Shown here: in pieces, positions 20,024 through 64,000 of the stretch
Layout: each line of letters begins with the position of its first letter
Position numbering within the stretch: the first letter of the stretch is position 1
The notes under the pieces: model-generated
What the model was told of the DNA's origin: nothing
Seen by the model: the letters and a program-made list of their open reading frames with translations, nothing else
The model's database searches: none
IMG/VR virus record: IMGVR_UViG_3300027782_000040
Strand: one strand, 5' to 3'
Origin: a virus
Length of the DNA stretch: 64,000 nucleotides
Position numbers and translations under genes: made by a program

Positions 20024-21763
20024 ATGGGAGCATTATTAGAATCAGGTATGGTTGGTAACATCGGATTAAAACATTTACGTGTTATCAAGGAAGATACCAT
20101 TAAAAAATGGGACGAATTAGGTTTCTTAGAAAACTTAGAAGGTCACCAAAAAGATAATATCGCGCAATTGTATGAAAACCAAGCGTCATATTTGATTAAC
20201 GAAGCGGCAGTAGCAGATTCTTCAGGTTCTTTTGAAACTGTAGTTTTCCCTATCATCCGTCGTGTATTCTCTAAATTATTAGCGAATGACATCGTATCAG
20301 TACAAGCAATGAACTTACCAATTGGTAAATTGTTCTTCTTCGTACCTAAAATCCAAGAAAGAGATAATAGTAATAATCACTATTCTCCTTATGGATATCC
20401 AAATACAGGTGCAACAAGTCAAGGTTATGACACAGGTGCTAAGAATCTTTACGATCGTTTCTACGAAGGTAGTGACGCAGTAGGTGAAGGTCTTTTTGAT
20501 TATTCAAAAGGTTCATTCACTGATGTTTCTTTAACTGGTACATCTATTGTAACTTTTGCAAATGGTGTTGAAAGTAACGCAGTAACTATCGCTACAGGTA
20601 CCGATGTTTCATCAGTTATCTTAAAGTTAACAGGTTTCTCTAGATTAGGTCAAGGTAAATTAGCTGGTCCAGACGGTAACGAAATGGATACAGAAGAGTT
20701 TTTAGCTTCATTAACAATCACTGCACCTCGTGCAAATGCGTTAAGTGGTAGAACTTTCTTACCTTTCAACGTTGTAACTCAAAAATATGGTAAAGGTATC
20801 GTATCTTACGGACAAAAATCTGCAGGTACAAACGGTAACTTATTCAATGATATTTGCGATGAAGCTGGTACAATCTACTTAAATGTTGATTTACAAACTT
20901 ACAGTTCAACTGAAGGTTTTGCAGATACGGAAATTACAGTTACAACATTACAAGGTGATGACTTTACAGCGACTTATCGTCGTTATGCAACTTTAGAATT
21001 TGAAGATCAAATTGGTGAGGTTTCTTTTGATTTAGAATCAGTAACAGTTTCTGTAACTGAAAGAAAATTAAGAGCTAGCTGGTCTCCTGAATTGGCTCAA
21101 GACGTTAGTGCATTCCACAACATTGATGCTGAAGCTGAATTAACAGCTTTATTATCAGAGCAAATTGCAGCTGAAGTTGACCGTGAAATCTTACGTGATT
21201 TACGTAAAGGTGCAGCATGGAAATCTAAATGGGATTACAATGAGTGGAAATACGGTGGAACTGGTGGTGCAACTTTACAAGGTTACACACAAAAAGACTG
21301 GAACCAAACTTTAGTTACTAAAGTTAACCAAATTTCAGCTCAAATCCATAAAACAACCTTAAGAGGTGGTGCTAACTGGATTGTAGTTTCTTCTGAAGTT
21401 TCTGCAGTATTTGATGATTTGGAATATTTCCACGTATCAAACGCAGCTCCTGAGCAAGATTCTTACAACATGGGTATTGAGAAAATCGGTTCTTTGGCAG
21501 GTCGCTACCAAGTATACCGTGATCCTTACTTCCCAGCTAACAAAATCTTGATTGGTCATAAAGGAAAATCTTTATTGGATGCAGGTTATGTATACGCACC
21601 ATATGTGCCATTACAATTGACTCCAACAATGTACAATCCTTTCACAATGACTCCTATCAAAGGTATCATGACTCGTTACGCAAAGAAAATGGTGAACAAC
21701 CGTTACTTTGGTATCATCGATGTACAAGGTATTGCAACATTTGATATGAATACATTAAGATAA
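20024..21763 (+). CDS. major capsid protein (T4 gp23-like)
   Basis: LYENQ, VSVQAM, RKLRASWSPELAQD, IDAEAEL, YAPYVPL and GIMTRY motifs. Confidence 0.95.
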   Translation: MGALLESGMVGNIGLKHLRVIKEDTIKKWDELGFLENLEGHQKDNIAQLYENQASYLINEAAVADSSGSFETVVFPIIRRVFSKLLANDIVSVQAMNLPIGKLFFFVPKIQERDNSNNHYSPYGYPNTGATSQGYDTGAKNLYDRFYEGSDAVGEGLFDYSKGSFTDVSLTGTSIVTFANGVESNAVTIATGTDVSSVILKLTGFSRLGQGKLAGPDGNEMDTEEFLASLTITAPRANALSGRTFLPFNVVTQKYGKGIVSYGQKSAGTNGNLFNDICDEAGTIYLNVDLQTYSSTEGFADTEITVTTLQGDDFTATYRRYATLEFEDQIGEVSFDLESVTVSVTERKLRASWSPELAQDVSAFHNIDAEAELTALLSEQIAAEVDREILRDLRKGAAWKSKWDYNEWKYGGTGGATLQGYTQKDWNQTLVTKVNQISAQIHKTTLRGGANWIVVSSEVSAVFDDLEYFHVSNAAPEQDSYNMGIEKIGSLAGRYQVYRDPYFPANKILIGHKGKSLLDAGYVYAPYVPLQLTPTMYNPFTMTPIKGIMTRYAKKMVNNRYFGIIDVQGIATFDMNTLR

Positions 21764-21785
21764 TCTTAGGATTCACAATACAAAA

Positions 21786-21813
21786 GACCCTCGTAGAAAT
21801 ACGGGGGTTTTTT
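21786..21813 (+). terminator. Rho-independent terminator after the capsid gene
   Basis: GACCCTCGTA-GAAA-TACGGGGGTT stem-loop followed by a T run. Confidence 0.8.
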
Positions 21814-21816
21814 ATT

Positions 21817-24625: not shown

Positions 24626-26014
24626 TTATTTTTCTGATACGATTTCAAAATTTATTGATTCTTTATAGTATATCTCTTCAGTGTGAGTTTTTCCTTTAAT
24701 CTGTAGGAAATACTGTCTTGGTATTAAATAAGAACTATCTAATTGAAATGAGTTTTCATTCGTTTTATCTAATAACGTCCAATCGTGTACAATTACTTGA
24801 GTCGCACCTTCTTCGATATAAATTCTATAATAAACCTCATCTAACAATACCGTTTTAGGTACGTCAATAGATTTAAATGTAATAACTACTTTTCTTATTT
24901 CACCACTTACTATTTTTTCATTTTGTTTAATTCCAAAAAATTGAATGGCATACCTTTGTAATTCTGTTTGATTTTCACCTACCGTAAATCCGGCGGTATA
25001 TGGTTTTGGAATGAACTTTTGTCTTACTCCACCAGAAATTGTATTACCATCTAAAATAACACCTTTCCAATGGTCAGTAAAGAATTTCTTTCCGTCACAT
25101 TCTGGTGTGGTTATTGTAAATGTAACCTTATAGATACCTTTTCTAATTAATGTTGTGGTTAAACCTGAAAGACCTGTAATAACAGCACCGTCAGAGTTTA
25201 ATATGTCAACCGTTGGGTTTGAATCTAAATTATAAAAATTGGTTCCTTTTGTAACGTATAGATATAAATTCTGTGATACTTTCTCAACAAAATTATTTCT
25301 ATCGTCCATTATGGTATCTTCAAAATGTGTGTCAACGTATGGTTCAAAGAATGTTTGTGTGTATTTGGTAAAAAATGCTACTGATTGGTCTCTATCAGGT
25401 GTTAAATATTGATAAACAACAGCGAATGATAATCCTAAACCATGATTTGTATTACCTGTAATAATACCATTTACATAATCGGTAATATCAAAATCAATGT
25501 TTTCACCACCATTATCCATATGTATTTTATTACCTGTGTACCCTGAAATGACTGTTGGGGAGTCATGAAATACACCTGCAGTTGACCATTGATTCAATGT
25601 TGTTCTATAATACCAGTTTGACGGTCTTTCGTCAAATGTTCTATTTCCAGTTACAAAGTCATAACCAGAATCTGCATAATCAAACCCTAAACCTTCATCC
25701 CAAAATTGATCTAATTTAAATAATATTAAATCAAATGAACTTGTTCTGTCTCTACCGGTAGTTCTGTTTAAACCCTTTTGACCCTCATCACCAAAGATTG
25801 TATTTGTTAAATGTAAAGTATGTCTAGTGTTAGAATCTACCACTAATTCATCATTATTAACTTTATTTTTTAAATCGGTAAAGTCAACTTTAAATAAAAA
25901 TTTAGAAAATGAAGAACCATAAAAAATCTCTGTTGCAGGGTTTTTTGCGGTGTTAACCTGTGAATCCTTAATAATAGTATTATTCTTTTCAAAATAGGAA
26001 CGGAAATATGACAT
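24626..26014 (-). CDS. probable virion structural protein
   Basis: 462 aa beta-rich ORF with TATTTATA upstream. Confidence 0.65.
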   Translation of the reverse strand: MSYFRSYFEKNNTIIKDSQVNTAKNPATEIFYGSSFSKFLFKVDFTDLKNKVNNDELVVDSNTRHTLHLTNTIFGDEGQKGLNRTTGRDRTSSFDLILFKLDQFWDEGLGFDYADSGYDFVTGNRTFDERPSNWYYRTTLNQWSTAGVFHDSPTVISGYTGNKIHMDNGGENIDFDITDYVNGIITGNTNHGLGLSFAVVYQYLTPDRDQSVAFFTKYTQTFFEPYVDTHFEDTIMDDRNNFVEKVSQNLYLYVTKGTNFYNLDSNPTVDILNSDGAVITGLSGLTTTLIRKGIYKVTFTITTPECDGKKFFTDHWKGVILDGNTISGGVRQKFIPKPYTAGFTVGENQTELQRYAIQFFGIKQNEKIVSGEIRKVVITFKSIDVPKTVLLDEVYYRIYIEEGATQVIVHDWTLLDKTNENSFQLDSSYLIPRQYFLQIKGKTHTEEIYYKESINFEIVSEK

Positions 26015-26038: not shown

Positions 26039-27550
26039 TTAATTGGTTCTAATCGATTTGTTTAACATGTCATTTTCTAAAGTCGTGATTTTTTTCATTA
26101 AATTAACGAAACTCGGGTCAGTTTGGACTAATGGACCCATCAAATTGTGTTGGTGACTAATCATTAATTTAATTATTGATTGAAGTACGTCAATTAAAAC
26201 TTCCCCCCTAACTAACGCATATGTATTTGGTTCAATGTCTTTAATATAATTCTCGTGGGTAGGTTCATACTTATCAATTTTGGTAAAATCAATTGGTATG
26301 TTATATTCGTTGGTATCTGTTGAAATTAGGTATATTTTGTCAGATTTAACGGTTGCAAATGTTTGTTCAACAGTATCATCACTTTCTTCCAAAACATTCT
26401 TTTTTGTTACACTAGTTACTGTTGGAGCATCAAAACTTGATTTTGAGAAAACGATACCTTCTTGGATTCTTTTACCAAAAGTAACGTTTGTTAATAGTGT
26501 TTTTCTATTTGTTAATTCAAATGGATTCGCTAAATCTCTCTCTTTACATTCTTTTGTACATCTAAAATAAAATGGATGCATTTCAGTTTCTCCGTAAATT
26601 GGGTTGAAGTAGTTTAATCCATCGTGATGTAATTTATAGAGGTTTAATCGTATTTTAACACACGCTTCCGTTAAATCTGCAGCCGTAAATGTGAGTGTTG
26701 CGCCTGTCGAAGTATTTACTCTATTATTAATGTTATATTCGTTGATTAACGTACAACCAGTGGTTAAAATTGTATCTTCTAATTTTGAGTTTGAACTTAA
26801 AAATTGTGGTCCAGCATTTCTAGTGTCATAAACATAAAATTCAATATTAACTCCACCACCATAAAAATTAGTAACGTTATATTCAACAAAATATTTTATT
26901 TGTTGGATTTGTAAGGTATTAGTGATAACATCTTGGTTGTTATATTCTAATTTTTTTGGATATTTTTTTAAATGTATTGTTGATGAATTGTCCGACATTG
27001 TCGGGTGCGTTATCAATACCTTTTTTTGTGCACTTGTTGCAAATGATTTACTTAACAATTTACCACCTCTAATATTCACACCATTTTCTGTAAAAATAAC
27101 ATCAGAACCGTATTTCCCATAAACACCATAATCAGTATTTTTTGCTAACGAACCATTAGATTTTGGTTTAATATAATTTCCGTCTTTATCTTTAACATCT
27201 TCACCATGCACCGCTCCTTTATGGTAAGTTGTATTTTCAAGTTGTGCGGAATGTGTTTGTCCGTTAAAATCGTGAACAGTTGTAAAGGGACCTGCAATAT
27301 ATTCAAGATTAACAGTATCTTTTTCAGTATCGTAATTTATAATTTTAACTGACTGTCCTTTTTCAGGTATAAAATTCAGATTTGTTGGTAAAAATGGAAT
27401 TGCAGTAAATAAATCCTTATCATCCCAAGCATTATAATCAAAAGCTTTTTCTAATTCACCTGTATATGAACTATACCTAACTGCACGGATACGACCAATA
27501 CCTTTTGGGTCATTATTATCAATACAAATTGCAATATCTATTATTTTCAT
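26039..27550 (-). CDS. baseplate hub/spike protein (gp5-like N-terminal OB fold)
   Basis: DNNDPKGIGRIR...PFLP...IPEKGQSV N-terminus and an HQH motif near the C-terminus. Confidence 0.65.
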   Translation of the reverse strand: MKIIDIAICIDNNDPKGIGRIRAVRYSSYTGELEKAFDYNAWDDKDLFTAIPFLPTNLNFIPEKGQSVKIINYDTEKDTVNLEYIAGPFTTVHDFNGQTHSAQLENTTYHKGAVHGEDVKDKDGNYIKPKSNGSLAKNTDYGVYGKYGSDVIFTENGVNIRGGKLLSKSFATSAQKKVLITHPTMSDNSSTIHLKKYPKKLEYNNQDVITNTLQIQQIKYFVEYNVTNFYGGGVNIEFYVYDTRNAGPQFLSSNSKLEDTILTTGCTLINEYNINNRVNTSTGATLTFTAADLTEACVKIRLNLYKLHHDGLNYFNPIYGETEMHPFYFRCTKECKERDLANPFELTNRKTLLTNVTFGKRIQEGIVFSKSSFDAPTVTSVTKKNVLEESDDTVEQTFATVKSDKIYLISTDTNEYNIPIDFTKIDKYEPTHENYIKDIEPNTYALVRGEVLIDVLQSIIKLMISHQHNLMGPLVQTDPSFVNLMKKITTLENDMLNKSIRTN

Positions 27551-27750: not shown

Positions 27751-29796
27751 TTATGCTAGTCCTCCGGTCGCTTTAAGTAATCCTTGTGGTATTAGTACCA
27801 TTCCACCAACAACTGGAAACTTTAGCGTTTTTTTATTTGCGACGTGTACGTAAGAGTTATTATTCACTTCTTTAGTGTGTTGTTGAACTGTTGTTGCCAA
27901 AACACTTAATAAGTTATTATCTTTACCAAATATTGGTTGAGATGCGTTTATACCTTGTTCTTCTAATTGGTTCACAATATTAACAATAGTTCTAATACCA
28001 CTAAATCCTGATTTTTTATCGGCAAAGGAATCAATAATACCAGGAACTTCAAAATTAGGACCACCAAATAATGCAGCATCTATTGTTTTGTCAATCACAG
28101 TAAATAATGCGTTACAGTTATTAAGCTTTGTGTCCAACAGTCCACGTAATAAATTTATAATAGAAAGAATATAATCTCTATATTTTTTAATTTTTTCTTT
28201 TAATATATTATATGCTGTAATTTTTAAAAATTCAAGTAAATCTTTTTTAACCAATTTCCAAAACTCACTTATAAATTTCCATAAAATATCCTTAATTATT
28301 TTAAAAAATAATTTATGTAATTTTTTCATTATTTCTTTCGCCAATAAAACAACATTACCACCTGCTGAATTTACATATTTATAAATTATTACAATTGGTA
28401 ATATATACTTTGGTGATAAAATAGAACCAATTAATGCTTTAGGTAAGTTTAAAATATAATTGTTTAATAACGATATTTGAAAATTAACTAATGGTATTGT
28501 TCCACCGGCTTCTTGATATGACGTTGTTGCAGTATTTAAAAAGACGTCATTTACCGCATCATCTAAATTGTTTTTTGAAAGGTACACAAAATCTTCATAG
28601 TGTGATGGATTTGATGGTATTGTAAAATTATTACAGTCTGTAAATTTTAAAACTTTATTAAATCTATTCGCCTCGTCGTCTAAATCAATACCTTCCATAT
28701 CATCAAAATCAAAGAAAGATTCTATATCATCATCATCTTCATTAAATTGATTTTCCGCACTTTGATTTAATCCTTGACTTGGGTTATTACAAACCCTCAT
28801 CAATTTATTTAATAATCTATTTAAATCATTCATACCGATATCAAATAACGGGGGTTCAGATTTATCACCCTTCAAAACCATCATCGTTGCAGTTTTAACT
28901 ACCGCAGATAAATCTAACTGTTCAATATTACTATAATAATCATTAAAAAAACCACCAACAGTGGTTCCTGTTTGAGTTGTGGTTGTCATCCCTGTTAATC
29001 CAGATAATTCAAATTCTTGATTTGCTTCATCCCAATGTAAATCAAATAATTTTTTTTCATCAGATGTTTCAACCGATTGATCTGATGTAAATCCAGAATA
29101 TAATGTACGATTCATCTTAATTAATTTCCTATCTGGATTTTGTGGTTCATACACAATTTGACCACTATTACTAGTTGGGTTTACTGTCAAAACATTCATA
29201 AAATCAAATTCACCAGGACGTATAGTTAATGTATTACCCGTGATTGGTGTTGATGATCCACAAATACCATCACCAGCAAAAAGAATATTTTTAACATTAT
29301 CCATCACAATGTTTTTAGAAGACGTTATTGTTGTATTAATGGCTTCATGTGCTAAAAAATGTAATCTGTCTTTAGATACAAAGTTTTGTCTTGTAAATTT
29401 AGACCCGTAAGTTTTTTTAACTGTAAAAGTTGTAGATTTTTTTTTATCTAAAAAAGTATCAACCAAATCAAGAATTTGACTAAAAATATCAGTTTTTAAT
29501 TTTCCAGCATCTTTTTTCTTTTTTTTCTCTTTTAAATCTGTAATTTTTTTCTTTAATCTTTTTTTTGCGTCCGCAAGTAATGGACCATCTCCATTAAAAT
29601 CAATAATAGACCCAAAACCATCCTTATCTATAGTATTGTTAAAGTTCCACTTATCGGCAAATTCCTTAACAGCCCCAATTTTTCTTTTAATTTTAGCGAT
29701 TAAAATCTTTGTTTTACTTTTAGTTGGTAAATCATTTGCAGTCGCATATGAAAATGGAATAATTGGGTTACTACTAACATTAAAATATTCTCCCAT
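27751..29796 (-). CDS. hypothetical protein, probably virion/baseplate
   Basis: 681 aa ORF in the same operon as the gp5-like gene. Confidence 0.65.
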   Translation of the reverse strand: MGEYFNVSSNPIIPFSYATANDLPTKSKTKILIAKIKRKIGAVKEFADKWNFNNTIDKDGFGSIIDFNGDGPLLADAKKRLKKKITDLKEKKKKKDAGKLKTDIFSQILDLVDTFLDKKKSTTFTVKKTYGSKFTRQNFVSKDRLHFLAHEAINTTITSSKNIVMDNVKNILFAGDGICGSSTPITGNTLTIRPGEFDFMNVLTVNPTSNSGQIVYEPQNPDRKLIKMNRTLYSGFTSDQSVETSDEKKLFDLHWDEANQEFELSGLTGMTTTTQTGTTVGGFFNDYYSNIEQLDLSAVVKTATMMVLKGDKSEPPLFDIGMNDLNRLLNKLMRVCNNPSQGLNQSAENQFNEDDDDIESFFDFDDMEGIDLDDEANRFNKVLKFTDCNNFTIPSNPSHYEDFVYLSKNNLDDAVNDVFLNTATTSYQEAGGTIPLVNFQISLLNNYILNLPKALIGSILSPKYILPIVIIYKYVNSAGGNVVLLAKEIMKKLHKLFFKIIKDILWKFISEFWKLVKKDLLEFLKITAYNILKEKIKKYRDYILSIINLLRGLLDTKLNNCNALFTVIDKTIDAALFGGPNFEVPGIIDSFADKKSGFSGIRTIVNIVNQLEEQGINASQPIFGKDNNLLSVLATTVQQHTKEVNNNSYVHVANKKTLKFPVVGGMVLIPQGLLKATGGLA

Positions 29797-30187: not shown

Positions 30188-30886
30188 TTATTCTAAAAAT
30201 CCAACCAAAATACCGTCATACATCTTTTTAAAACGTTTTAGGGATACTCTAATCTCTTTTGTGGATAATGAGGTCATTTCTCGTAATGAGAGTAAGATAA
30301 GGTTCTTATTGAATTTATTACCATCACCAACTTGGAATATTTTATCAAAATTGCTAAAAATCTCTAACAATGCATATCCCAATTTTTGTTCGTTTTCTGT
30401 TAGGTTTTCCTTCTCAATAAAGTTTTCTAAAGAAATGGTTAATTTAATTATAACACTTTGGTAATCAATAATGTGTTCGTCAATAACATAAGACAAATCT
30501 TTCCTATCTTCAATATCGGATGATATGTCATCGTAAGATACTTGTCTATTCTGTTCTTTAGTGTCTTTCTGTATTGCCCCCATAAGGTAGTTTTTACAGA
30601 TAGTACCAAAGTATGAATACGCTTTAGTGTTCTTTGTGTGGTCGAATTTATTAATTTTAGTGATTAAAAAAGACATAGTATCGGTGTGAATTTCTTCAAA
30701 TTCCATATCCTTCCTATATAATTTATATCTTCTAATAATACTCTCAACCATAATAACTAATGGTTCTCTTAAAAACTCATTGAATATTTTGTTTTTTTCA
30801 TCTTCATCGGTACTCTCTAGATACTTAACGACGGCTTTTTCTTGATCCTCACCAAAGTATATTTTTTGGGTTCGTGGTCTCGGCAT
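30188..30886 (-). CDS. phage RNA polymerase sigma factor (gp55-like)
   Basis: Region 2-like KFDHTKNTKAYSYFGTICKNYL and a C-terminal HTH-like LREMTSLSTKEIRVSLKR. Confidence 0.75.
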   Translation of the reverse strand: MPRPRTQKIYFGEDQEKAVVKYLESTDEDEKNKIFNEFLREPLVIMVESIIRRYKLYRKDMEFEEIHTDTMSFLITKINKFDHTKNTKAYSYFGTICKNYLMGAIQKDTKEQNRQVSYDDISSDIEDRKDLSYVIDEHIIDYQSVIIKLTISLENFIEKENLTENEQKLGYALLEIFSNFDKIFQVGDGNKFNKNLILLSLREMTSLSTKEIRVSLKRFKKMYDGILVGFLE

Positions 30887-31666
30887 TTAAACTGTTTCAT
30901 AATTTACATCTCGTTTATTCTTAAAAAAGAATTCCTTTTTGGCCGTCTCCAACCAAAATTTAACCTCATTTTCTGACAGTTTTTGTTTTTCATTATTCTT
31001 GTAACTCCAAAATAATGAATCTTCTCTTAAGTTAACATGTTGATAACCAATTTTAGGAACTGTCATGACCCTAATACCATTGTGTGTTAATCTTAAAAAG
31101 AATTCGTATGCGAATGTTAATTTGATATTTTCTTTTAAGCTACCATTATCCTTAATAACTTGGGTTCTATATAAACCACCACTTATTTGATAATTTTGGA
31201 AATCTAATAATACTTCATTGTCAATGAATCCTTGCATTTCAGTAAAACCATATGCCCAAGCTGATTCATTTGTAAAACTTACAAATTTACCATCAGTATT
31301 AATGTCTCTTACAATAGGTAAAAATACATCAACATCTTTATAAATTTTCATATAATCGTTGATTGATTTTAACCAAATAGGTCTAAATTCATCATCAACT
31401 TCTAAAATAGTAAACCATTCAGTATCACATTTCTCAATACCTAAATTAACTTGTGAACAAAAATCTGTTTCACCTTTATTAACCACTATTTCAATTTCTA
31501 ATTTTTCAGAAAGATTTTCTAAATCTTTTTTTAATTTACTTGGACAAACAATTGATACTTTAACATCATTGTGGAAATCCTCAATAGACGATAACGCGTT
31601 ATCTAACATAACTTTATAATCGTCATCTAATTTATGTAAAGGTAAAATTACTGTTATATTTTTCAT
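30887..31666 (-). CDS. glycosyltransferase, GT-A fold (GT2-like)
   Basis: ITVILP N-terminus, NLGI...WFTILEVDD, and FFLRL. Confidence 0.8.
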   Translation of the reverse strand: MKNITVILPLHKLDDDYKVMLDNALSSIEDFHNDVKVSIVCPSKLKKDLENLSEKLEIEIVVNKGETDFCSQVNLGIEKCDTEWFTILEVDDEFRPIWLKSINDYMKIYKDVDVFLPIVRDINTDGKFVSFTNESAWAYGFTEMQGFIDNEVLLDFQNYQISGGLYRTQVIKDNGSLKENIKLTFAYEFFLRLTHNGIRVMTVPKIGYQHVNLREDSLFWSYKNNEKQKLSENEVKFWLETAKKEFFFKNKRDVNYETV

Positions 31667-31667: not shown

Positions 31668-32732
31668 TTATACTGTTTCTTCTTGTTTTAATTTGTCTAA
31701 TGCTGATTGAATAGATTCAACTCTTTTATTTATTAATGAACCAAATATTGATAAAATATTATTTTTTGTAATTTCAGTGTCATAAGGTAATAACGTTTCT
31801 TTCATTTTATCTTTAACTTCATCAGTTAATTCAACACCCTCAATCCACGCTAAAATATATGAACCTAATAATTCAACTAATTTATTACCGTCGTATGTCC
31901 ACATACCATTTTCACTTAACCAATCTGGTTCAGTGTCAGGAATTTTACCAACTACAGGTACACCACATTTCATAGATTCTAATGGAAATGTACCGAACGT
32001 ACTTTCATCATCAACCCATACCGATACCATACATTCCTTTAAGTTTGACGAAAATTCATCATAAGACATTTGGACCATATCTCTAAATGTAATCCAACGT
32101 AATTGTGGAAACTTCAAATAAAATTCAGAAATTAATTTTCTATGTACCGCTCTATCTCTACAACTGATTGCCACATAAGGTTTTAATGGTAAATTAATTG
32201 GTTTAAAATCATCTCCGATAATCGGTGGAATAATATACACTAAACTTTCAGGGAAGTAATCTAAAATGTATTTTTTTGTACTTTCAGTTGTGGTAATAAC
32301 TTTATCAAATCCATATTCGCTATACCTACTACCAATTGGTAATGTCTCAAACATATATTCTTTTTGTTGTATCAATAAAACTTTAATACATCTAATACTT
32401 GATAATTGTTGTAATGTGTTTCCGTAATACTCGGGAACAACTAAAACATCTTCAATTTTAATTTCAACTTTATCTTCTTTGATAGATACAATCTCTAATT
32501 CACTATATTCTTCACTTAACCAAGAACTAACCCCAACATAGTTTTTATCTTCAACTAAAATTTTGGACTTTCTACCATTTCTATTAAGTGTTAATGCCAA
32601 ATCGTAAATGTATTTTACAGATGCTCTCGCGTTTGTTTTAGTGTCGTATGTTAAAAAATACACAACACTTTCATTGTTATTTAATCTACCTAAAGCAGAT
32701 TCTAATTTTTCTATGTTTTCGTTATTACTCAT
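31668..32732 (-). CDS. glycosyltransferase, GT-B fold
   Basis: STFGTFPLESMKCGVPVVG resembles the GT4 nucleotide-sugar binding motif. Confidence 0.7.
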   Translation of the reverse strand: MSNNENIEKLESALGRLNNNESVVYFLTYDTKTNARASVKYIYDLALTLNRNGRKSKILVEDKNYVGVSSWLSEEYSELEIVSIKEDKVEIKIEDVLVVPEYYGNTLQQLSSIRCIKVLLIQQKEYMFETLPIGSRYSEYGFDKVITTTESTKKYILDYFPESLVYIIPPIIGDDFKPINLPLKPYVAISCRDRAVHRKLISEFYLKFPQLRWITFRDMVQMSYDEFSSNLKECMVSVWVDDESTFGTFPLESMKCGVPVVGKIPDTEPDWLSENGMWTYDGNKLVELLGSYILAWIEGVELTDEVKDKMKETLLPYDTEITKNNILSIFGSLINKRVESIQSALDKLKQEETV

Positions 32733-35573: not shown

Positions 35574-36794
35574 TTATTTTATTATTGATTTAAAAAATTC
35601 TACTCTATCTTGACAAACTTTTTTTAATGAATATTTGTCTTTAACTGTTTCATATAAACGATTACCTAAATCTTCAATCATATTTGGATTTTCAACTAAA
35701 CGTTTCATATGTTTTGCCCAATCCTTATGATTTCTTCTTGGGTTAACTAATAATGCGTTACCGTTATCATTAAACTTACCGTCGTTAATTGCTGAAATTA
35801 AATCTAATGTATATGGGTCAGTTTCACTTGCAATAATTGCTTTCTTATGAAACCCCGCTTCAATAACTTTTAATTGTGATTTGTTAGCGTTAAATTGAGA
35901 TTCAACTAATGGTGCCAAAGACACATCAAATGTATTATAATTTGATGCATATGTTTTAATGTCCTTTGTCCACCTTCTTCTATATGATTCATTTTCATCA
36001 TCATATGGCGTATCAACAAATGTATTTAAAAAACTTTTATATTGAGGACTTAATACTTTATAATCTTCAGTAAAGAATTTTTCATACTTATACCAAACAG
36101 TTTCTGTTGGTTGAATTGAACGTTGTCTTTGTTTTCCTTCTTGGTCAATTTCAGTCACAGTACCTCTTAAGTCAAACCCACATAACACAAATTGTACTTT
36201 ATCTTTGAAACTGTTATGTGTTGAAGAAATACCATTTGACATTAATTCAATATCATGTAAATGTGATGAACCACCTAACCAACCAAATCTAATTTTATCT
36301 GACTTAATTGTTTCTCTTTTAAACTGAGGTTCATCTTCATTAACCGCATTTGGAAAAATTTCAATATTTTTTATATGTAATTTATCTTTGATGGTTTTAG
36401 TGAAAATTGGTGTTGTCGTTGTAACATAATCAACTACTTTTAACATGTCAATTTTCATTTCACCAATCTTAGATGCTTTAACGTGATGATACATTGGGTG
36501 TCTTTGATCAACAAACCACAAATCATCAATATCCATAATAACTTTAATACCTTTGGATTGTAACCATTTTATTCTTCCAATGTTTTGTTCGTGATTTGTT
36601 TGATGTATGAATGTATGAAATACGACGATATCGTAATTTAAAAAATATTCATCATTGTTATCTGCATTATATGAGATATCAACATGGACATCATCCGAAT
36701 GATTATCACCAATAAATTGGTAAGGGTCCATCATCCTAAACTTACCTACTCCGTGTTTATCCGAGGGAATTGCTAAAATTCTAATTTTTGACAT
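35574..36794 (-). CDS. glycosyltransferase, GT-B fold (GT4-like)
   Basis: MDIDD, PNAV, GWLGGSSH, DVSLAPL and FNANKSQLKVIEAG motifs. Confidence 0.85.
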   Translation of the reverse strand: MSKIRILAIPSDKHGVGKFRMMDPYQFIGDNHSDDVHVDISYNADNNDEYFLNYDIVVFHTFIHQTNHEQNIGRIKWLQSKGIKVIMDIDDLWFVDQRHPMYHHVKASKIGEMKIDMLKVVDYVTTTTPIFTKTIKDKLHIKNIEIFPNAVNEDEPQFKRETIKSDKIRFGWLGGSSHLHDIELMSNGISSTHNSFKDKVQFVLCGFDLRGTVTEIDQEGKQRQRSIQPTETVWYKYEKFFTEDYKVLSPQYKSFLNTFVDTPYDDENESYRRRWTKDIKTYASNYNTFDVSLAPLVESQFNANKSQLKVIEAGFHKKAIIASETDPYTLDLISAINDGKFNDNGNALLVNPRRNHKDWAKHMKRLVENPNMIEDLGNRLYETVKDKYSLKKVCQDRVEFFKSIIK

Positions 36795-39883: not shown

Positions 39884-39936
39884 CTAAATGGACTTTTATA
39901 TAAATATCAAATGTTATGAAAGATATTTATATAAAC

Positions 39937-43232: not shown

Positions 43233-44303
43233 ATGCCATCAACAAATCATTTTAAATTCGGAGCCTCAGGAATAAGTTCAGCAACTAGAGGCGGTTTTAG
43301 TGTTGGAGTAAAAGAAGGGGCCGATTACGGACCAACATCAACAACAGGTTTTTGGAACGGAGTAACTCCACCAGTAAGTGGATACACCATTTACGTAGAT
43401 AAAGCTTCACAAGGTCCTAGTATACACGTTGCGTCTAACAATTCACAATGTATTGGTATGTTATTGGCGATGGGTGCCACAGGTAGTACAATAGAAAATG
43501 TATTGGCGTGGGCTGATGGTCAAGCAAATATGGTAGTTTTAAGTGAAGAATTAGTTATAGGTGATTTACCAGGTGCGGGACCAAGTATTGTAACATCAGG
43601 TTTAGTATTAAACTTGGATGCTGGAAATGTTTCTTCATATTCCGGAACTGGAACAGTTTGGAATGACTTAAGTGGAAATGGATATACAGCTACAATGACT
43701 AGTTCTAACCCAACATTTGTAAGTAACGGTGCAGCTAGTTACTTTAACTTATCTAATAACAATAAATACATATACAACCACGATACAAGTGTACAAGGAT
43801 TTACATTTGCAACTAATACTGGAATACCACAAACTAATGGTTTCACAATTGAATTTATGTATTATATATCATCTTACAACTTTGGGAATGGACAAAATTC
43901 TATATTCTTAAATTCAGGTACAGGTGATGGTTATAGATTTGGTATTCTTAATGATGATTCTTTATACTTTATGATTGGAGATGGTAGTGGAACTGATAAT
44001 GCAACTGTAGGTAACGGAAGTGTAACTGTTGGAGCATGGTATCATATTGTTGGAGTATTTGATAGAACGAACGCATTAGGTGGAGGTGTTAATATATATG
44101 CATATTCAAACGGTATATCAAAAGGATCAACGGGTATTTCGCCACGTTCAGGAATGTCATTAGCAGCACCTAACATATCTTATGATGGTTGTTGTTCAGC
44201 ATTTGACGGACGATTAAATACATTAAGAGTTTATAATCGAGCATTAAATTCAACTGAAGTCACTCAAAACTTTAACACTGTAAAATCAAGATTTGGATTA
44301 TAA
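43233..44303 (+). CDS. putative fibre/receptor-binding protein with a LamG domain
   Basis: IVTSGLVLNLDAGN-x-x-SY-x-G-x-G-x-x-W-x-DLSGNG, WYHIVG and RVYNRAL motifs. Confidence 0.75.
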   Translation: MPSTNHFKFGASGISSATRGGFSVGVKEGADYGPTSTTGFWNGVTPPVSGYTIYVDKASQGPSIHVASNNSQCIGMLLAMGATGSTIENVLAWADGQANMVVLSEELVIGDLPGAGPSIVTSGLVLNLDAGNVSSYSGTGTVWNDLSGNGYTATMTSSNPTFVSNGAASYFNLSNNNKYIYNHDTSVQGFTFATNTGIPQTNGFTIEFMYYISSYNFGNGQNSIFLNSGTGDGYRFGILNDDSLYFMIGDGSGTDNATVGNGSVTVGAWYHIVGVFDRTNALGGGVNIYAYSNGISKGSTGISPRSGMSLAAPNISYDGCCSAFDGRLNTLRVYNRALNSTEVTQNFNTVKSRFGL

Positions 44304-44320: not shown

Positions 44321-45148
44321 ATGTCACAACCAAGTACAAATCATTTTAAATTCGGAGCATCCGGAATAAGTTCAGCCACAAGAGGTGGCTTCAGCGTTGG
44401 AGTAAAGGAGGGTGCCGATTATGGCCCAACCTCATCAACAGGTTTTTGGAACGGAGTAAAACCACCAGTAGGTGGATACACCATTTACGTAGATAAAGCA
44501 TCACAAGGTCCAAGTATTCATGTGGCATCTAACAATGCTCAATGTATTGGTATGTTATTAGCAATTGGTGCTACAGGTAGTACAATAGAAAATGTATTGG
44601 CGTGGGCTGATGGTCAAGCAAATATGGCAGTTTTAAGTGCAGAATTAACTCTTGGTGATTTACCAGGTGCTCCAGTAACTTATACTATAGGTCAAGCAGC
44701 CTTAGGTGGTATAATCGCTTATATTGATGGTGGTGGTTCTACAGGTACATCAGGATTAGTTGCTACAGTTGCAGATGTTTCTTCAGGTAATGCATCATGG
44801 GGATGTATTGGAACGGCGATATCGGGTGCAGATGGTACCGCTATAGGAACTGGAAATCAAAATACAATAGATATAATGGCTGGATGTGCTACCGCAGGAA
44901 TTGCAGCTAGAATTTGTGGAGATTTAACACAAAGTGGATATTCTGATTGGTATTTACCAAGTAAAGATGAGTTAAATGCATTATATACAAACAAAGCTTC
45001 TATTGGAGGTTTTGCGAATGACGCCTATTGGTCTTCTACGGAATATCACATTGCATCTGCAGCATATTACCAAGATTTCACTAATGGTTTTGTAACTGCA
45101 ACACCTAAGAACTCTGATTTATATGTACGTGCAGTGAGAAGCTTCTAA
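44321..45148 (+). CDS. putative fibre protein with a DUF1566/C-type lectin-like C-terminus
   Basis: GYSDWYLPSKDEL...YWSSTE...VRAVRSF; N-terminal ~115 aa nearly identical to the upstream gene. Confidence 0.75.
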   Translation: MSQPSTNHFKFGASGISSATRGGFSVGVKEGADYGPTSSTGFWNGVKPPVGGYTIYVDKASQGPSIHVASNNAQCIGMLLAIGATGSTIENVLAWADGQANMAVLSAELTLGDLPGAPVTYTIGQAALGGIIAYIDGGGSTGTSGLVATVADVSSGNASWGCIGTAISGADGTAIGTGNQNTIDIMAGCATAGIAARICGDLTQSGYSDWYLPSKDELNALYTNKASIGGFANDAYWSSTEYHIASAAYYQDFTNGFVTATPKNSDLYVRAVRSF

Positions 45149-54783: not shown

Positions 54784-57222
54784 ATGGCAAATTCAAACAG
54801 AGTATTCGTTTCTCCAGGTGTTTATACATCAGAGAAGGATTTAACATTCGTAGCACAAAGTATAGGTGTTACAACATTGGGATTAGTGGGAGAAACCTTA
54901 AAAGGTCCAGCTAATGAACCAATATTAATTTCAAATTTTGACGAATTTAAAACATATTTCGGAAGTACATCACCTGAAAAAGATGGTAATGGTAATCCAA
55001 AATATGAATTAGGTTATGTCGCTAAATCTTATTTACAAGAGTCAAATCAATTATTTGTAACAAGAGTATTAGGTAAGACAGGTTATAAAGCAGGTAAAAC
55101 ATTCGGTATTAAAACATTAGGTACAGATGCAGATATTGTAGTGGTAGCATTAAGATCAAGAGGACATTATTCAGGAGAAACTTTAGTATTTGAAGTTACT
55201 GGAAATACATCCTTCGTTCTTAGTGGTGCAACATTAACAACTAATCCATTATCTGAATTTGATATTCATGTTACAGGTGCAACAGGTGGAGCTAAAGTTT
55301 TTACTTGTAGTTTAGACGTTACATCATCAAAATATATAACTAAAGTTTTAGGAACAAGTCCATATGATAAAGATAGAAGTGATGTTCCTTTATATGTTCA
55401 CGAAGTATATCCAAACTTAACTAAAAATTTATATCACCAAGGTATGATTAGTGGTTTAAGTTTTACTGAAGTATATAACGCTGAAGGTGACAATTTTTCA
55501 AATCCTTGGGCTTTTCCAACGTCACCTACTATAGTTTCTGAAGTAAGAGGTGGTAAAGTTGATGATTTATTTGATATAACCACAATTTCAGACGGAAACG
55601 CTGCAAATGAAGAAGTTAAAATTACAATTCAAAATATCAATATTGAAACAGGTGAATTTGACATACTAGTTAGAGATTTTAACGATACAGATGAAAACAT
55701 GTCAGTTTTAGAAAAATTCTCAAGATGTTCAATGAATCCTGATGTTGCGGGATATGTTGCTAGAAAGGTAGGAACATCAAATGGTGATTATACTTTGAAT
55801 TCTAAATATATTATGTTAAGTATGGACCCTAATGCACCATCAAATGCGTTCCCTGCTGGATTTAAAGGGTTTACAAACGCAACTTTATCAGGGTCAACAA
55901 AATTAGGTAATGTTCTTTATAAAACTGAATTTTTTGATTCAGGAGATGCGATTGGTCCAGCTGGATCACCATATTCAGCAACAACAAGTAACGGAGACAA
56001 ATATAGAAAAACATCTTTAGGTTTATCTTCAGATAGTAATTTTAGTTTTGACGCAGATTTGTTCAAATATAAAGGTTCAGGAACATTGAATAGTACTGAT
56101 GGATTTCACTTATCAACTAATGCATCTTCAATTACAGGTACAACATATCAAACAACGGGTTATGATTTGGAAGGTCAAACAGACGCCGCTAACAACAAAT
56201 TAACCAATATTAATTATCGTAAATTTACATTTGCAGTATGTGGTGGTTTTGATGGTTGGGATATCTACAGAAGAGTAAGAACATATGGAGATGCGTATAT
56301 ATTTGGAAAAACAACATACATTTCAGGTCTTACAACAAATGGTGGATTGTTTGACACTGCAAATGGAAACTCCGATTATTATGCTTATTTAGAAGGAATT
56401 CAAACATATGCAAACCCTGAAGCAATAGATATTAACGTATTCGCAACTCCAGGTATTAACTTCTACGACCATAGTTCATTAACAACTCAAGCAATTGACA
56501 TGATTGAAACCGATAGAGCGGATTCAATTTATATTATCGGAGCCCCAAATGAAACTGATGCAACTAACGTTATTGACGATTTAGACGGTATTGCGGTTGA
56601 TTCTAACTATTCAGCCACATATTGGCCTTGGATTCAAGTAAGAGACACAGATAACGCAACTCAATTATATATCCCACCAACAGGTGAGGTTGTTAAGAAT
56701 ATTGCCTTAACTGATAACGTATCTTATCCTTGGTTCGCAGTTGCGGGTTACAGTAGAGGTTTGGTAAACGCAATCAAAGCACAAAAGAAACTTACTCTTG
56801 ACGAAAGAGATGAGTTATATAAGGCAAGAATCAACCCAATTGCAACATTCTCTGATACAGGTACCATTATATGGGGTAACAAAACGTTACAAGTTAGAGA
56901 GTCAGCTTTAGATAGAATCAACGTAAGAAGATTGTTATTAAGAGCAAGGAAATTGATATCTGCAGTCGCTGTAAGGTTATTATTTGAACAAAATGACGAC
57001 CAAGTAAGACAAGAGTTCTTAAGATTGGTAAACCCTATCTTGGAATCAATTAAGAAAGAAAGAGGTTTATATGACTTCCGTGTAAGTGTATCTAATGACC
57101 CAGAGGACATCGATGCTAACACATTAAGAGGTAAGATTTACATCAAACCAACTCGTTCTTTAGAATTCATTGATTTGGAATTTGTAATCACTCCAACAGG
57201 AGCTTCATTCGACAATATCTAA
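54784..57222 (+). CDS. tail sheath protein (gp18-like)
   Basis: SPGVY-x-x-E-x-D, GP, YWPW, PWFAVAG-x-x-RG, INPI, WGNKT, RINVRRL and IKPTRSLEFI motifs. Confidence 0.95.
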   Translation: MANSNRVFVSPGVYTSEKDLTFVAQSIGVTTLGLVGETLKGPANEPILISNFDEFKTYFGSTSPEKDGNGNPKYELGYVAKSYLQESNQLFVTRVLGKTGYKAGKTFGIKTLGTDADIVVVALRSRGHYSGETLVFEVTGNTSFVLSGATLTTNPLSEFDIHVTGATGGAKVFTCSLDVTSSKYITKVLGTSPYDKDRSDVPLYVHEVYPNLTKNLYHQGMISGLSFTEVYNAEGDNFSNPWAFPTSPTIVSEVRGGKVDDLFDITTISDGNAANEEVKITIQNINIETGEFDILVRDFNDTDENMSVLEKFSRCSMNPDVAGYVARKVGTSNGDYTLNSKYIMLSMDPNAPSNAFPAGFKGFTNATLSGSTKLGNVLYKTEFFDSGDAIGPAGSPYSATTSNGDKYRKTSLGLSSDSNFSFDADLFKYKGSGTLNSTDGFHLSTNASSITGTTYQTTGYDLEGQTDAANNKLTNINYRKFTFAVCGGFDGWDIYRRVRTYGDAYIFGKTTYISGLTTNGGLFDTANGNSDYYAYLEGIQTYANPEAIDINVFATPGINFYDHSSLTTQAIDMIETDRADSIYIIGAPNETDATNVIDDLDGIAVDSNYSATYWPWIQVRDTDNATQLYIPPTGEVVKNIALTDNVSYPWFAVAGYSRGLVNAIKAQKKLTLDERDELYKARINPIATFSDTGTIIWGNKTLQVRESALDRINVRRLLLRARKLISAVAVRLLFEQNDDQVRQEFLRLVNPILESIKKERGLYDFRVSVSNDPEDIDANTLRGKIYIKPTRSLEFIDLEFVITPTGASFDNI

Positions 57223-57544: not shown

Positions 57545-58033
57545 ATGGCAGATTTATTAATGAAAATGCCGGTTCCTTACGAACCGAAAAGAAAAAATAG
57601 ATTTATCCTAAGATTTCCATCATCTTTAGGAATAAATGAGTGGTATGTATTCTCCACAGCGAGACCATCTGCTAAAATTAAATCAGTTGAGATTCCTTTC
57701 TTGAACACAAAAACTTATGTTGCTGGTCAATTTGAGTGGGAAGAGATTAAAGTTCAATTTAAAGACCCAATTGGTCCTTCAGCTTCTCAAGCACTTATGG
57801 AATGGTTCCGTTTACATGCGGAGTCAGTTACAGGTCGTATGGGATATGCTGCGGGTTATAAGAAAGACATTGAATTGGAGATGTTAGACCCAACGGGAGT
57901 TGTGGTTGAAAAATGGATTTTACAAGGTTGTTTCTTAACAAGTTTGAACTTCGGTGATTTAGATTACTCAAGAGATGATTTGGCGACAATTGACGCTTCA
58001 TTAAGAATGGACCGTTGTATTCAAGTTTATTAA
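57545..58033 (+). CDS. tail tube protein (gp19-like)
   Basis: EPKRKNRF, RP, YVAG...W, YKKDI and W-x-L-x-G-x-F motifs. Confidence 0.9.
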   Translation: MADLLMKMPVPYEPKRKNRFILRFPSSLGINEWYVFSTARPSAKIKSVEIPFLNTKTYVAGQFEWEEIKVQFKDPIGPSASQALMEWFRLHAESVTGRMGYAAGYKKDIELEMLDPTGVVVEKWILQGCFLTSLNFGDLDYSRDDLATIDASLRMDRCIQVY

Positions 58034-60997: not shown

Positions 60998-63900
60998 ATG
61001 CCGAGTTATTTAGATTTTAATACAACAAAACAGTTTAGAAACCATATATTAGGTAAGACCTTACAAAAACCTAATGGACCTCAAACGTTTACAAATAGTT
61101 CATATGTTGAACAAAATCTAAGTGATATCCCTAATTTATTACAAGGTCAGGTAGACACTAATAGAATTAGTGATTTAACAATACCAAAGAACTCAAACAT
61201 ATATAAACCTGACGAATATTTTATTGGTGAAGTTATTAATACATTACCTCGTTCAGTTAATTTAAAGTTATACCCAAGTTTTGTTCAAACAGATTTAAGT
61301 TTATTCGGTATTATTAGTAATTCAAATTATGAAACTGAATCTGAATTAGTTAAGTTTTCAACTAGTTTAATTAAAAATGACCCACAAGGACCCGTTTATA
61401 GTAGAATAGCTCAAAATGTAGAAAAAAATACATTGGGTCGTGTAAGAATAATGGACGCCCTTAATGGTAATACAACTACTGCGGTTAACATATTAACAGG
61501 TAGAGAACCATTAATTGAATCAAACTACACAATCACGGTTGATAATACGTTAAGTATACCAGGTCAAGCGATTGATTTTCTAAAAACTGTTTCAGGTATA
61601 CAATTACCCTTTAGTCAAATACCAGGGGATTATTTAAGTAACCCAAGAAACCCGATAAACTATAGACCACAAGCGTCATCACAATTAGGTGCATTATTTC
61701 AAGACATAACAGGTGTATTAGGTTCATTAATAGGGATACAAAGACGACCATTGTTGTCAAGGAAACCATCCGACCTTTTGATTGAACATATGGGAAGTGG
61801 TCAAAAAAACAGGTTATATGACTTATTATCCTATTCAACATATGCACCAAATTATACCACAACCGCAAGATCACAAAACACATCTAAAATTTTTAATTTT
61901 ATTGATAAGGTTGCACAAGGGGTAAAAAACATTTTAGGTGTTGAGGCACCATCAGGTATCGCCTATATTGGAGACGATAGAGGTGAGGATGTAAAATATG
62001 CGATGAATGATTTTAATGATAGACCCGTAAGGAGTAACTATTATTTAACGTTAATGTTTGATAAAGTGTCAGCTGAATTATTTCACACAAATAAAAATAT
62101 TACAGAGGGAGGTTCAATCGGAGGTAAGTTAACTTGGATAAGTAATAAAGGATCCACCACAGATATAAATTTTCAAAACGTTAATGATGATTTATCTGTA
62201 AAATATGAGTTTAGACCTGATTCAATTTTAGGTAAAACACAAGAATTATTAAATTCAATGCCATCAGACGGAGGATCTCGTCGTTCACATGTTGCAAATG
62301 TTATTGACCAAACAAGTAAAGTATTTCAAGATGGGGATACAAGAATATCAAGAGGTTCCGCAGTTAAGTATACGGACAAATTTACAGGTGAAGAAAGTGG
62401 AGTTGAATATGCTAGAGTTTGGACGAAAGATAGACCATATATGACAAATTATGATACGATGCCGTTGGCAACAAATCAAAAAGATATTAACACAAAAAAA
62501 TACAAACAAACAGGAAGAAAATATAGAAGAGGTAATGTTAGAAGGTTTGAATCAAGTGTATTAAATGACACTTGGAATTTAAACATGGCACCAATGTCTA
62601 ATGGTAAAAAATCATTTGACGGATCAACAAATATTGTAGAGAAAAATGTAGGTTTAGGTGATTTTTATGCAAAGAAATATATGTTCTCAATTGAGAACTT
62701 AGCATGGAAAACATCTAACTTATCTGGATTCCAAGTAAGTGATTTACCTGCATGTGAAAAAGGAAATAATGGAGGTAGAGTTATGTGGTTTCCACCATAC
62801 GACTTAAAGATGAGCGAACAAAATAATGCAAATTGGGAAAAGAACTCATTTGTCGGAAGACCGGAACCAATTTATACATATCAAAATACTGAAAGAACTG
62901 GTCAAGTTTCATTTAAAGTTGTCGTTGACCATCCGAGTATTATGAATTTGTTAGTTAGAGAACATTTCAAAGGAATGTCAGATGAAGAATCCGATAACTA
63001 TATAAATGCATTTTTTGCTGGCGCACAAGACATTGATTTTTATTCATTAATACAAACATATACTACTTTAGATCAAAACGATAGAGATTTAATTCAACAA
63101 TACCTAAATGCTGGTGTTAAAAAAGAAACAATTGAAACAATTAAATATACTACCGAACAATTACCTAATGATGCTAATACTGATGTAAATAAAAATGAAC
63201 CTGTTAATTATGACACAAATAACATATTCTACTTTAAAAATGCTGAACCACCTGTAAATGGAAAAGTATTAACACAATCTCCCGATTATTATAGTAATTA
63301 TTATACACAATATATTGGAAGTCAATCGACATACATTACCAATTTAACATCCGCGATGAATAGTGCATTGTCTAATGCTGATAAAATTTTATTAATCGGT
63401 GACACAGGATCAACATCAAACCCAAGTGTTATCTCAGGACAAACTAATCAAATAATAACTGCATTTAGTGGGTTAACTACAAATTTTGAGGCATTAAATA
63501 AACAAATACTTGATTTAAAAACGGCATTATCTGGAAAAACAATTATTTCAGACACAAAAATAACAATATATACATCAACATCGGAAGCGGGAGATAACGA
63601 TAAGAATTTCTACTTAGGAATAAGAAGGGCGCATTCATTATTCCAACACATTTGGAATGAATTAGGAACATTCAAATATACGTGGTTTACCGAAAAGGAA
63701 TTAGCAACGTATGCCAAAAGTGGTTTACCTTTAAATACAAAAACAATCACTATAAAATATAAAGATATAGGATATGAATTAGATGGTAATATTATATTTG
63801 ATATAGGAACAATAGGTGAAAATAGTACATCACTAAATGGAACTAGTGTTGATTGTACAAAAGTATTTACTAATACCAATTTAAAAATATATTCCCCAAC

Positions 63901-64000
63901 GGCGTTTTACTGTAGACAGGGGTATGTTAAAATAAAATACGAAAAATCGTATGGTGAAAAAACACCACAAAAGATAAATAACCCAATTAGAAAACCGGTG
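60998..64000 (+). CDS. large baseplate/tube-initiator-like protein, 3'-truncated (not in the ORF track)
   Basis: Starts MPSYLDFN at ATG 60998 after TATTTATA and appears to run to the window end; includes GRVMWFPPYDL...W...GRPEPIYTY...R. Confidence 0.7.
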   Translation, partial: MPSYLDFNTTKQFRNHILGKTLQKPNGPQTFTNSSYVEQNLSDIPNLLQGQVDTNRISDLTIPKNSNIYKPDEYFIGEVINTLPRSVNLKLYPSFVQTDLSLFGIISNSNYETESELVKFSTSLIKNDPQGPVYSRIAQNVEKNTLGRVRIMDALNGNTTTAVNILTGREPLIESNYTITVDNTLSIPGQAIDFLKTVSGIQLPFSQIPGDYLSNPRNPINYRPQASSQLGALFQDITGVLGSLIGIQRRPLLSRKPSDLLIEHMGSGQKNRLYDLLSYSTYAPNYTTTARSQNTSKIFNFIDKVAQGVKNILGVEAPSGIAYIGDDRGEDVKYAMNDFNDRPVRSNYYLTLMFDKVSAELFHTNKNITEGGSIGGKLTWISNKGSTTDINFQNVNDDLSVKYEFRPDSILGKTQELLNSMPSDGGSRRSHVANVIDQTSKVFQDGDTRISRGSAVKYTDKFTGEESGVEYARVWTKDRPYMTNYDTMPLATNQKDINTKKYKQTGRKYRRGNVRRFESSVLNDTWNLNMAPMSNGKKSFDGSTNIVEKNVGLGDFYAKKYMFSIENLAWKTSNLSGFQVSDLPACEKGNNGGRVMWFPPYDLKMSEQNNANWEKNSFVGRPEPIYTYQNTERTGQVSFKVVVDHPSIMNLLVREHFKGMSDEESDNYINAFFAGAQDIDFYSLIQTYTTLDQNDRDLIQQYLNAGVKKETIETIKYTTEQLPNDANTDVNKNEPVNYDTNNIFYFKNAEPPVNGKVLTQSPDYYSNYYTQYIGSQSTYITNLTSAMNSALSNADKILLIGDTGSTSNPSVISGQTNQIITAFSGLTTNFEALNKQILDLKTALSGKTIISDTKITIYTSTSEAGDNDKNFYLGIRRAHSLFQHIWNELGTFKYTWFTEKELATYAKSGLPLNTKTITIKYKDIGYELDGNIIFDIGTIGENSTSLNGTSVDCTKVFTNTNLKIYSPTAFYCRQGYVKIKYEKSYGEKTPQKINNPIRKPV

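Follow-up and report, generated by a model that had tools for sequence, protein, structure and literature searches.

A four-residue motif, Ser/Thr-Gly-x-Thr ([ST]GxT), is strongly enriched in the outer particle proteins encoded by a 64-kb stretch of viral DNA, IMG/VR record IMGVR_UViG_3300027782_000040 (the whole stretch is called the window here). In these proteins it occurs three to fifteen times more often than expected by chance. The motif is a real, order-specific, clade-specific and sequon-like tag, and it behaves as if it were read by something. The initial annotation of this DNA had proposed a phage-specific O-glycosylation (or other modification) sequon on exposed loops of virion proteins, close to three phage glycosyltransferases (GTs) and putatively distinct from a D-[ST]-x sequon of the presumed host. 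Enzymatic modification is the best single reading of our results, most plausibly O-glycosylation by a long-form GT4 enzyme whose product is extended by the other two GTs; we put its chance at somewhat under even.

The window contains 44 instances of [ST]GxT, compared with 14.5 expected when whole proteins are shuffled and 15.2 when the shuffling is local, over 30 amino acids. Anagrams of the motif with the same composition occur 14-23 times, and composition alone does not explain the excess. The shuffles give p<5e-4 for each of three proteins, a fibre-like protein (39916-42807), an unannotated protein (27751-29796) and the tail sheath. To guard against post-hoc motif choice, we scanned the structural set for 3 x 8000 (24,000) gapped tripeptides. 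With (TP)n linker patterns set aside, TGxT ranked first (23 vs 5.9 expected, p 8e-8) and SGxT second (18 vs 4.4, p 1e-6), which rules out post-hoc picking of the motif. Virion and fibre-like proteins together carry 40 motifs where 10.6 are expected, and enzymes and regulators carry 1 vs 1.7; the former divide into proteins with a virion family assignment (10 vs 2.5) and fibre-like or unannotated large proteins (30 vs 8.2). The composition-corrected comparison thus bears out the virion bias claimed in the initial annotation, whose hand counts for named proteins were all reproduced exactly.

That the signal merely reflects a composition rich in Ser, Thr and Gly, repeats within proteins, paralogous domains or a motif at the DNA level is hardly credible; this artefact explanation was tested and rejected. 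The motif-rich proteins are richer in Ser, Thr and Gly than the enzymes, and one motif is duplicated in a pair of paralogues (43233-44303 and 44321-45148), which would fit an artefact, but the global and local shuffles, the anagram controls and the unbiased scan all contradict it. A shared paralogous domain is ruled out by the motif-bearing segments themselves, which have no detectable similarity to one another except in that pair. Codon choice at the three fixed motif positions matches that of the genome, and Ser is encoded by both of its codon families, which rules out a DNA-level motif and indicates selection on the protein.

The residue requirements are sharpest in the sheath family, where 81 homologues contain 632 motifs vs 109 expected. 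SGxT is enriched 6.2-fold and TGxT 5.5-fold in this set, and the variants SGxS (1.0), NGxT (0.3), DGxT (0.7) and SGxV (0.3) are not. At the second motif position Gly is enriched 5.8-fold and every other residue at most 1.5-fold. In 26 of 40 window instances the motif is preceded by a hydrophobic residue (L, I, Y or V), and x is free at clade-conserved sites, bulky hydrophobics included (TGST, TGAT, TGLT, TGVT). The sheath motifs span 72 alignment columns, all within insertion domains; a few columns are kept in 44-50 of 73 sequences and many in only a few. At the seven sites of the window's sheath, relatives carry unrelated sequences, and therefore the fold does not require the motif. The sheath gene itself (54784-57222, + strand) encodes motifs at residues 130-514, in insertion domains that precede the conserved C-terminal core; all seven lie before residue 527, where the Pfam sheath core starts.

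An AlphaFold2 (AF2) model of the sheath is poor overall (mean predicted local distance difference test score, pLDDT, 47.5) and usable only at residues 101-235 (pLDDT 70-88). In this modelled domain S130 is the end of one strand and T133 the beginning of the next, with G131-E132 as the turn between them; S147 and T164/G165 are likewise at strand ends, and T139 is in a loop. Three of the four motifs of the domain are thus predicted to sit at strand-end hairpin turns. Such turns would be exposed, as a sequon would need, yet they are also structural elements, and the modelled placement fits both readings equally. The modelled turns fit the claim that the motif marks exposed loops, and they are equally compatible with a structural habit.

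A structural habit is the alternative that we take most seriously, as a real possibility though a doubtful one: the motif would be a lineage-specific way of making tight beta-hairpin turns in newly evolving beta-rich surface domains, with Gly at the first turn position and hydroxyl residues flanking it, and it would not be modified. The GTs would then act elsewhere, for example on DNA, host envelope glycans or small molecules. The modelled strand ends at S130, S147 and T164/G165 agree with this, as do the hydrophobic residue that commonly precedes the motif and the spacings of 8-11 residues that recur in several motif clusters. It is harder to reconcile with the lack of enrichment of the turn-compatible patterns NGxT, DGxT, [ST]GxV/I and [ST]GxS, and with a bulky hydrophobic x, which is atypical for a type II' turn. 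The enzymes of the same genome also contain hairpins, yet they are not enriched in the motif.

The 963 amino acid fibre-like protein (39916-42807, + strand) has the most motifs, 13 in all, at residues 56-258, 562 and 744-782. Nine are within the first 265 amino acids, and a lectin-like Laminin_G_3 domain forms its C-terminus. Masking of the (TP)n linkers leaves an expectation of 1.4 motifs in the protein and 0.6 in the N-terminal 265 amino acids. A 681 amino acid unannotated protein (27751-29796, - strand) carries 5 motifs at residues 186-276, where 0.4 are expected. Two further genes on the same strand encode proteins of 462 amino acids (24626-26014; 3 motifs) and 503 amino acids (26039-27550; 2 motifs), which weakly match CBM96 and PlyCA_N, respectively. 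Orthologues of the former contain 7 motifs in one clade member (G009) and 1 in another (G006), and orthologue counts differ widely among close relatives. The Gp23-type major capsid protein (MCP; 20024-21763, + strand) has motifs at residues 128 and 241 of 579, both in a clade-specific insertion that does not align to other Gp23 proteins. A large tail protein that runs past the window end (60998-64000, + strand) has 4 motifs at residues 803-845, and its homologues contain 81 vs 39 expected.

The paralogous genes 43233-44303 and 44321-45148 (both + strand) encode proteins with lectin-like tips (Laminin_G_3 and Lcl_C, respectively). Their N-terminal 115 amino acids are 91% identical and include one motif, so that one of the three motifs in the pair is a duplicate. 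The arrangement suggests that a fibre was duplicated and its receptor-binding end exchanged. Searches of PHROG, Pfam and the ESM Atlas with the motif-rich proteins returned almost no matches. The tail tube (57545-58033) has no motif, nor do the large terminase (TerL), the portal, the ClpC-like ATPase, the helicase and the RNA ligase. The polymerase (45292-48189) has one. Its family averages 1.3 motifs per protein (42 vs 9.8 expected in 32 homologues), an excess that we think comes mostly from a single conserved site at residue 666; the family shows how conserved sites inflate family-wide motif counts.

The three genes annotated as GTs are genuine, as profile and fold matches confirm, and their products are soluble. 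The gene at 35574-36794 (- strand) encodes a GT4-like, retaining-type GT-B enzyme in a long form. Its model (pLDDT 96.6) has the two-Rossmann GT-B fold with a GT4-type C-terminal donor-binding domain, and its top Foldseek matches are all GT4 (E 5e-13). The nearest structures are PglA, GlgM, MshA, BshA and TreT, whereas SdgB ranks 42nd and a chlorovirus enzyme 45th; profile searches match the C-terminal domains of PglA, TreT, MshA, BshA and PimA. That the nearest GT4-fold neighbours are not protein-acting enzymes is in keeping with the structural-habit explanation. More than 8000 relatives of this GT-B are present in the metagenome-derived protein database that we searched.

The product of 31668-32732 (- strand) is an Agt/AmGGT-like GT-B enzyme. 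It matches only Actinobacillus AmGGT (PDB 8xsg), with E 1.4e-6 for the single sequence and 2.1e-10 for the profile over 234 residues. AmGGT is the only solved relative, and the family elongates glucose on glycopeptides; Agt homologues of AmGGT add glucose to peptide-linked glycans, and whether the acceptor is a glycopeptide or an oligosaccharide depends on a two-pair residue motif (PMC12159676). The third enzyme (30887-31666, - strand) is a small GT-A protein of GT2-like type (28.3 bits with a cut-off of 23.3) and has an invariant ExDD motif. None of the three has a membrane segment (maximum 19 amino acid Kyte-Doolittle hydropathy 0.56, 1.22 and 0.62), which separates them from membrane-bound, serotype-converting GTs of the Gtr type.

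Directly downstream of the two adjacent GT genes is a gp55-like late sigma factor gene (30188-30886, - strand), beside which the initial annotation had placed the GTs; its matches are weak (Sigma70_r2 E 1e-3; phrog_234 E 6e-4). These two GT genes, the sigma-like gene, a gene for a 125 amino acid protein and 27751-29796 abut or overlap on one strand, and the start of 27751-29796 overlaps the stop of its upstream neighbour. Nothing points to DNA as the target of the GTs. The three enzymes have no Pfam match to the T4 AGT or BGT families, which are also absent among the listed fold matches. Relatives of the window carry a thymidylate-synthase family gene (297 bits) that looks like an ordinary ThyA, and a search for Tet/JBP enzymes found no match, with a control that was equally silent.

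Across phages, the GT-B of 35574-36794 is the enzyme whose distribution best follows the motif. Observed-to-expected motif ratios are 3.1, 2.1 and 3.1 in clade members with the long-form enzyme (G002, G006 and G009) and 3.4 in G005, whose contig ends just before the GT block and is uninformative on the GTs. An outlying relative with a complete 345-kb genome (G010; MCP identity 55%) has all three GTs and a ratio of 2.2. We considered low-motif sheath outliers as possible relatives without GTs and rejected them: the G005 contig stops short of the block and its other proteins are strongly enriched, and G006 has the GTs. The closer virion relatives that lack the long-form GT-B also lack motif enrichment. 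Mel-JY01, the closest cultured relative (sheath 31% identical over its full length), is without all three GTs and contains 42 motifs vs 40.4 expected (1.04), with none in its sheath and two giant proteins. LR756508, a 484-kb megaphage (MCP 43%) with no long-form GT-B, has 71 vs 51.6 (1.38) and no significant open reading frame (ORF).

Two further phages extend the comparison. The 25 structural proteins of T4, a distant T4-like phage with no long-form GT-B, contain 18 motifs vs 14.2 expected (1.27). The unrelated phage phi92, which has a short-form GT-B homologue (25% identity), has 34 vs 23.3 (1.46) and no significant ORF. The counts in T4, Mel-JY01, LR756508 and phi92 rule out a generic property of phage fibres. 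They also argue against a structural habit, in that the beta-rich virion proteins of the first three do not use this turn. In all motif-positive lineages the long-form GT-B is present with residues E237, Y270, R272 and W274; phi92 and two other genomes (G012 and G013) carry the short form, which is without the segment that holds these residues, a long-form insertion at about residues 206-275. The phi92 genome (NC_023693.1) has four annotated GTs at 102200-105376 (gp163-166), of which the short-form homologue is one.

The motif also follows the long-form GT-B into a far more distant phage. LR756501, a 735-kb megaphage, has this enzyme (34% identity, full length) but neither of the other GTs. 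In its virion module it is much more distant from the window than Mel-JY01 and LR756508 are, with no MCP match and a sheath that is 24% identical over 160 amino acids. Nineteen of its ORFs are enriched in the motif at p<0.003 (for example, 22 vs 1.6, 12 vs 0.9 and 15 vs 1.8), and the motif context is the same as in the window, with a hydrophobic residue before [ST]GxT. Except for a weak match between the two sheaths, BLAST (E<=1e-5) finds no match between these ORFs and the motif-rich proteins of the window. That this tag also appeared in non-homologous proteins of a remote megaphage with a shared GT-B is difficult to explain as a structural habit of one lineage. The tagged proteins in LR756501.1 include large unannotated ones such as 252448-256500, 466198-470223 and 247690-249690.

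Apparent alternative motifs in Mel-JY01 and LR756501 were rejected because they come from single collagen-like (GTS)n proteins and are not a dispersed tag. Such (Gly-Thr-Ser)n proteins, encoded at 635-3052 in Mel-JY01 and by several LR756501 ORFs, contain dozens to hundreds of triplets; they dominate naive motif counts and need masking in surveys.

Only five G002 genes are present in both G010 and LR756501 and absent from both Mel-JY01 and LR756508, and among these the GT-B is by far the strongest. The others are a double GT2, a HAD-domain protein, an unannotated 247 amino acid protein and a gene with a local match of 100 amino acids. The double GT2 (Glyco_tranf_2_5 plus Glycos_transf_2; 505 amino acids, 208521-210038 in G002) lies outside the window, and its presence profile matches the motif as well as that of the GT-B does.

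If the motif is a sequon, hydrophobic-[ST]-G-x-T would be a short recognition tag on exposed beta-hairpin turns of fast-evolving virion surface domains, such as the insertions of sheath and capsid and proteins of fibre-like or lectin-tipped type. The tag would be read in the cytoplasm by a soluble enzyme of the phage, either ahead of assembly or while it proceeds. For this reader the best candidate is the long-form GT4-like GT-B, which would O-glycosylate a hydroxyl of the tag; the Agt/AmGGT-like enzyme and the GT-A may then extend the glycan, and the outcome would be a sugar-coated tail and fibres. The enzymes fit such a role, in that all are soluble, GT4 includes the protein O-GlcNAc transferase SdgB, and the family of the Agt/AmGGT-like enzyme works on glycopeptides. 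A broader version, in which distant jumbo and mega phages of aquatic bacteria share a long-form GT4 enzyme that writes the sequon at hairpin turns, and the sequon provides a movable glycan coat on fast-evolving tail and fibre surfaces, strikes us as rather unlikely.

Several points weigh against modification by these enzymes. That it occurs at all, the residue modified, the sugar and the initiating enzyme are each deduced from sequence. The predicted position of the tag, at tight turns where strands end, is where a structural motif would be. The GT-B fold does not disclose the acceptor, and the nearest structures act on lipids, sugars and small molecules. Most motif-rich proteins are without family annotation, so that their virion label is partly inferential. 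The contrasts among phages depend on very few independent lineages, and phi92 and two small phages carry the short-form homologue without clear enrichment.

Another objection comes from G011 (IMGVR_UViG_3300025684_000025), a 41.5-kb fragment that is syntenic with the window at 22-64 kb and closer to it than G010 is (sheath 55%, polymerase 61% and tube 80% identity). All three GTs are retained (41-45% identity) and its GT-B has every family-invariant residue, yet the fragment contains 4 motifs vs 10.2 expected. Its orthologues of the 24626, 26039, 27751 and 60998 proteins carry no motif, and no alternative enriched motif was found in the 41.5 kb. The linker protein of G011 uses poly-Thr instead (TTT 60 vs 8 expected). 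The three window GTs are therefore insufficient for the motif and must have some motif-independent function, and retention of the GTs without the motif is also what a structural habit would allow. Co-occurrence of GTs and motif thus stands for the long-form GT-B, from the clade into LR756501 and in its absence from Mel-JY01 and LR756508, and fails in G011. The sequon interpretation as a whole is upheld in part, as to a real, order-specific, virion-biased tag; the modification itself is hypothetical, and the G011 exception limits the interpretation.

The insufficiency of the three GTs in G011 also favours another explanation, which we regard as improbable: a trans-acting factor distinct from these enzymes would read the tag, or the tag would have some other function. 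Candidates would be a modifying enzyme elsewhere in the roughly 300-kb genome (the double GT2, for instance, or an enzyme of non-glycan modification) or an assembly chaperone; in a variant, the tag would be a ligand-binding array of hydroxyls for host surface polysaccharide. A reader would account for the sharp residue specificity and the convergent spread, and the double GT2 of G002 shares the phyletic profile of the motif, but the five G002 genes with that profile include no candidate reader that is not a GT. Glycosylation by the long-form GT-B is still the reading that we prefer.

The threonine-proline linkers of the fibre-like protein, which the initial annotation did not mention, are an equally plausible O-glycan target, as an alternative to the motif or in addition to it. 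Two (TP)n linkers lie between the domains of this protein, at nucleotides 41002-41175 and 41737-42081 (residues 363-420 and 608-722), and TPT is the most enriched tripeptide genome-wide in the relative G002 (233 vs 33 expected). Linkers of the (Thr-Pro)n type are classic O-glycosylation regions of bacterial secreted enzymes.

The source of the window is an uncultured large T4-like freshwater phage. It is a member of a metagenome-abundant clade of T4-like jumbo phages, an assignment that follows from synteny between the window and IMG/VR contigs of 176-287 kb; no near match was found among 50,697 phage records. The window has 31% G+C and encodes, besides the Gp23-type capsid protein, sheath and tube, a T4-type portal, a large terminase and a baseplate hub. 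It also has genes for a family B polymerase, helicase, ClpC-like ATPase, RNA ligase, PhoH and dUTPase. The ATPase (4880-6928, - strand) is a full-length two-domain AAA+ chaperone of the ClpB/ClpC type that is also found in the megaphages LR756501 and LR756508 at 42-45% identity.

If the tag is a true sequon, very abundant freshwater jumbo phages would sugar-coat their tails and fibres at sites that can be read from sequence. Among tailed phages other than the actinobacteriophages, this would be the first system of sequon-directed protein glycosylation to be described. It would bear on adsorption, evasion of defence and antibodies, particle stability and the reading of virion surfaces from metagenomes, and would offer a compact enzyme-plus-tag pair for glyco-engineering. 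Even as a mere structural habit, the motif would help to recognise exposed, fast-evolving domains in this clade. A concrete comparative design to decide between the readings can be built on the exception in G011 and the convergence in LR756501.

A literature search for a known SGxT or TGxT sequon found nothing relevant, and the closest known system is that of mycobacteriophages. Work by Freeman and colleagues (2023, Cell Host Microbe 31:1216) is said to describe O-glycosylation of mycobacteriophage virions by phage-encoded GTs. The two cases are alike in that each phage encodes its own soluble GTs (three here), and in that we propose capsid and tail surface targets made in the cytoplasm and a resulting glycan coat. 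According to a published summary that cites this work (PMC12619734), the glycans of mycobacteriophages are attached to capsid and tail-tube subunits at their C-termini. In the present phage, the candidate sites follow a defined four-residue motif and are scattered across internal loops of many proteins; the tube has none, the capsid sites are far from the C-terminus and the others are internal. The phage is also a T4-like jumbo myovirus that is known from its sequence only. If C-terminal targets define the mycobacteriophage type, this case falls outside it.

A second comparison is with cytoplasmic glycosylation by GT4 and NGT-Agt systems, in which soluble GT-B enzymes act on folded or repeat proteins. 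The product of 31668-32732 is a sequence relative of Actinobacillus AmGGT/Agt, an alpha-1,6-glucosyltransferase (PMC12159676). The 35574-36794 enzyme shares the GT4 fold of SdgB (PDB 7vfk); as to a protein acceptor of the SdgB/GtfA kind, SdgB is at rank 42 among the fold matches, and the acceptors of the top matches are lipids, sugars or small molecules. An initiating enzyme of HMW1C/NGT type was not seen, and the sequons differ, being N-x-S/T for NGT and Ser-Asp repeats for SdgB. The alpha- and beta-glucosyltransferases of T4, which modify hydroxymethylcytosine in DNA, are similar in being GTs of a T4-like phage from a non-structural gene block; the window enzymes differ from them in having no Pfam match to either family.

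The motif itself also has a partial parallel in bacteria. In the collagen-like exosporium proteins BclA of Bacillus and BclA3 of Clostridioides difficile (the latter with SgtA), Thr is O-glycosylated in G-x-T triplets. The G-x-T core is common to both, with Thr as a plausible acceptor. In those proteins the triplets are in tandem within a collagen triple helix, whereas the window motif is isolated, is preceded by a hydrophobic residue and a Ser or Thr, and is predicted to lie at beta-hairpin turns.

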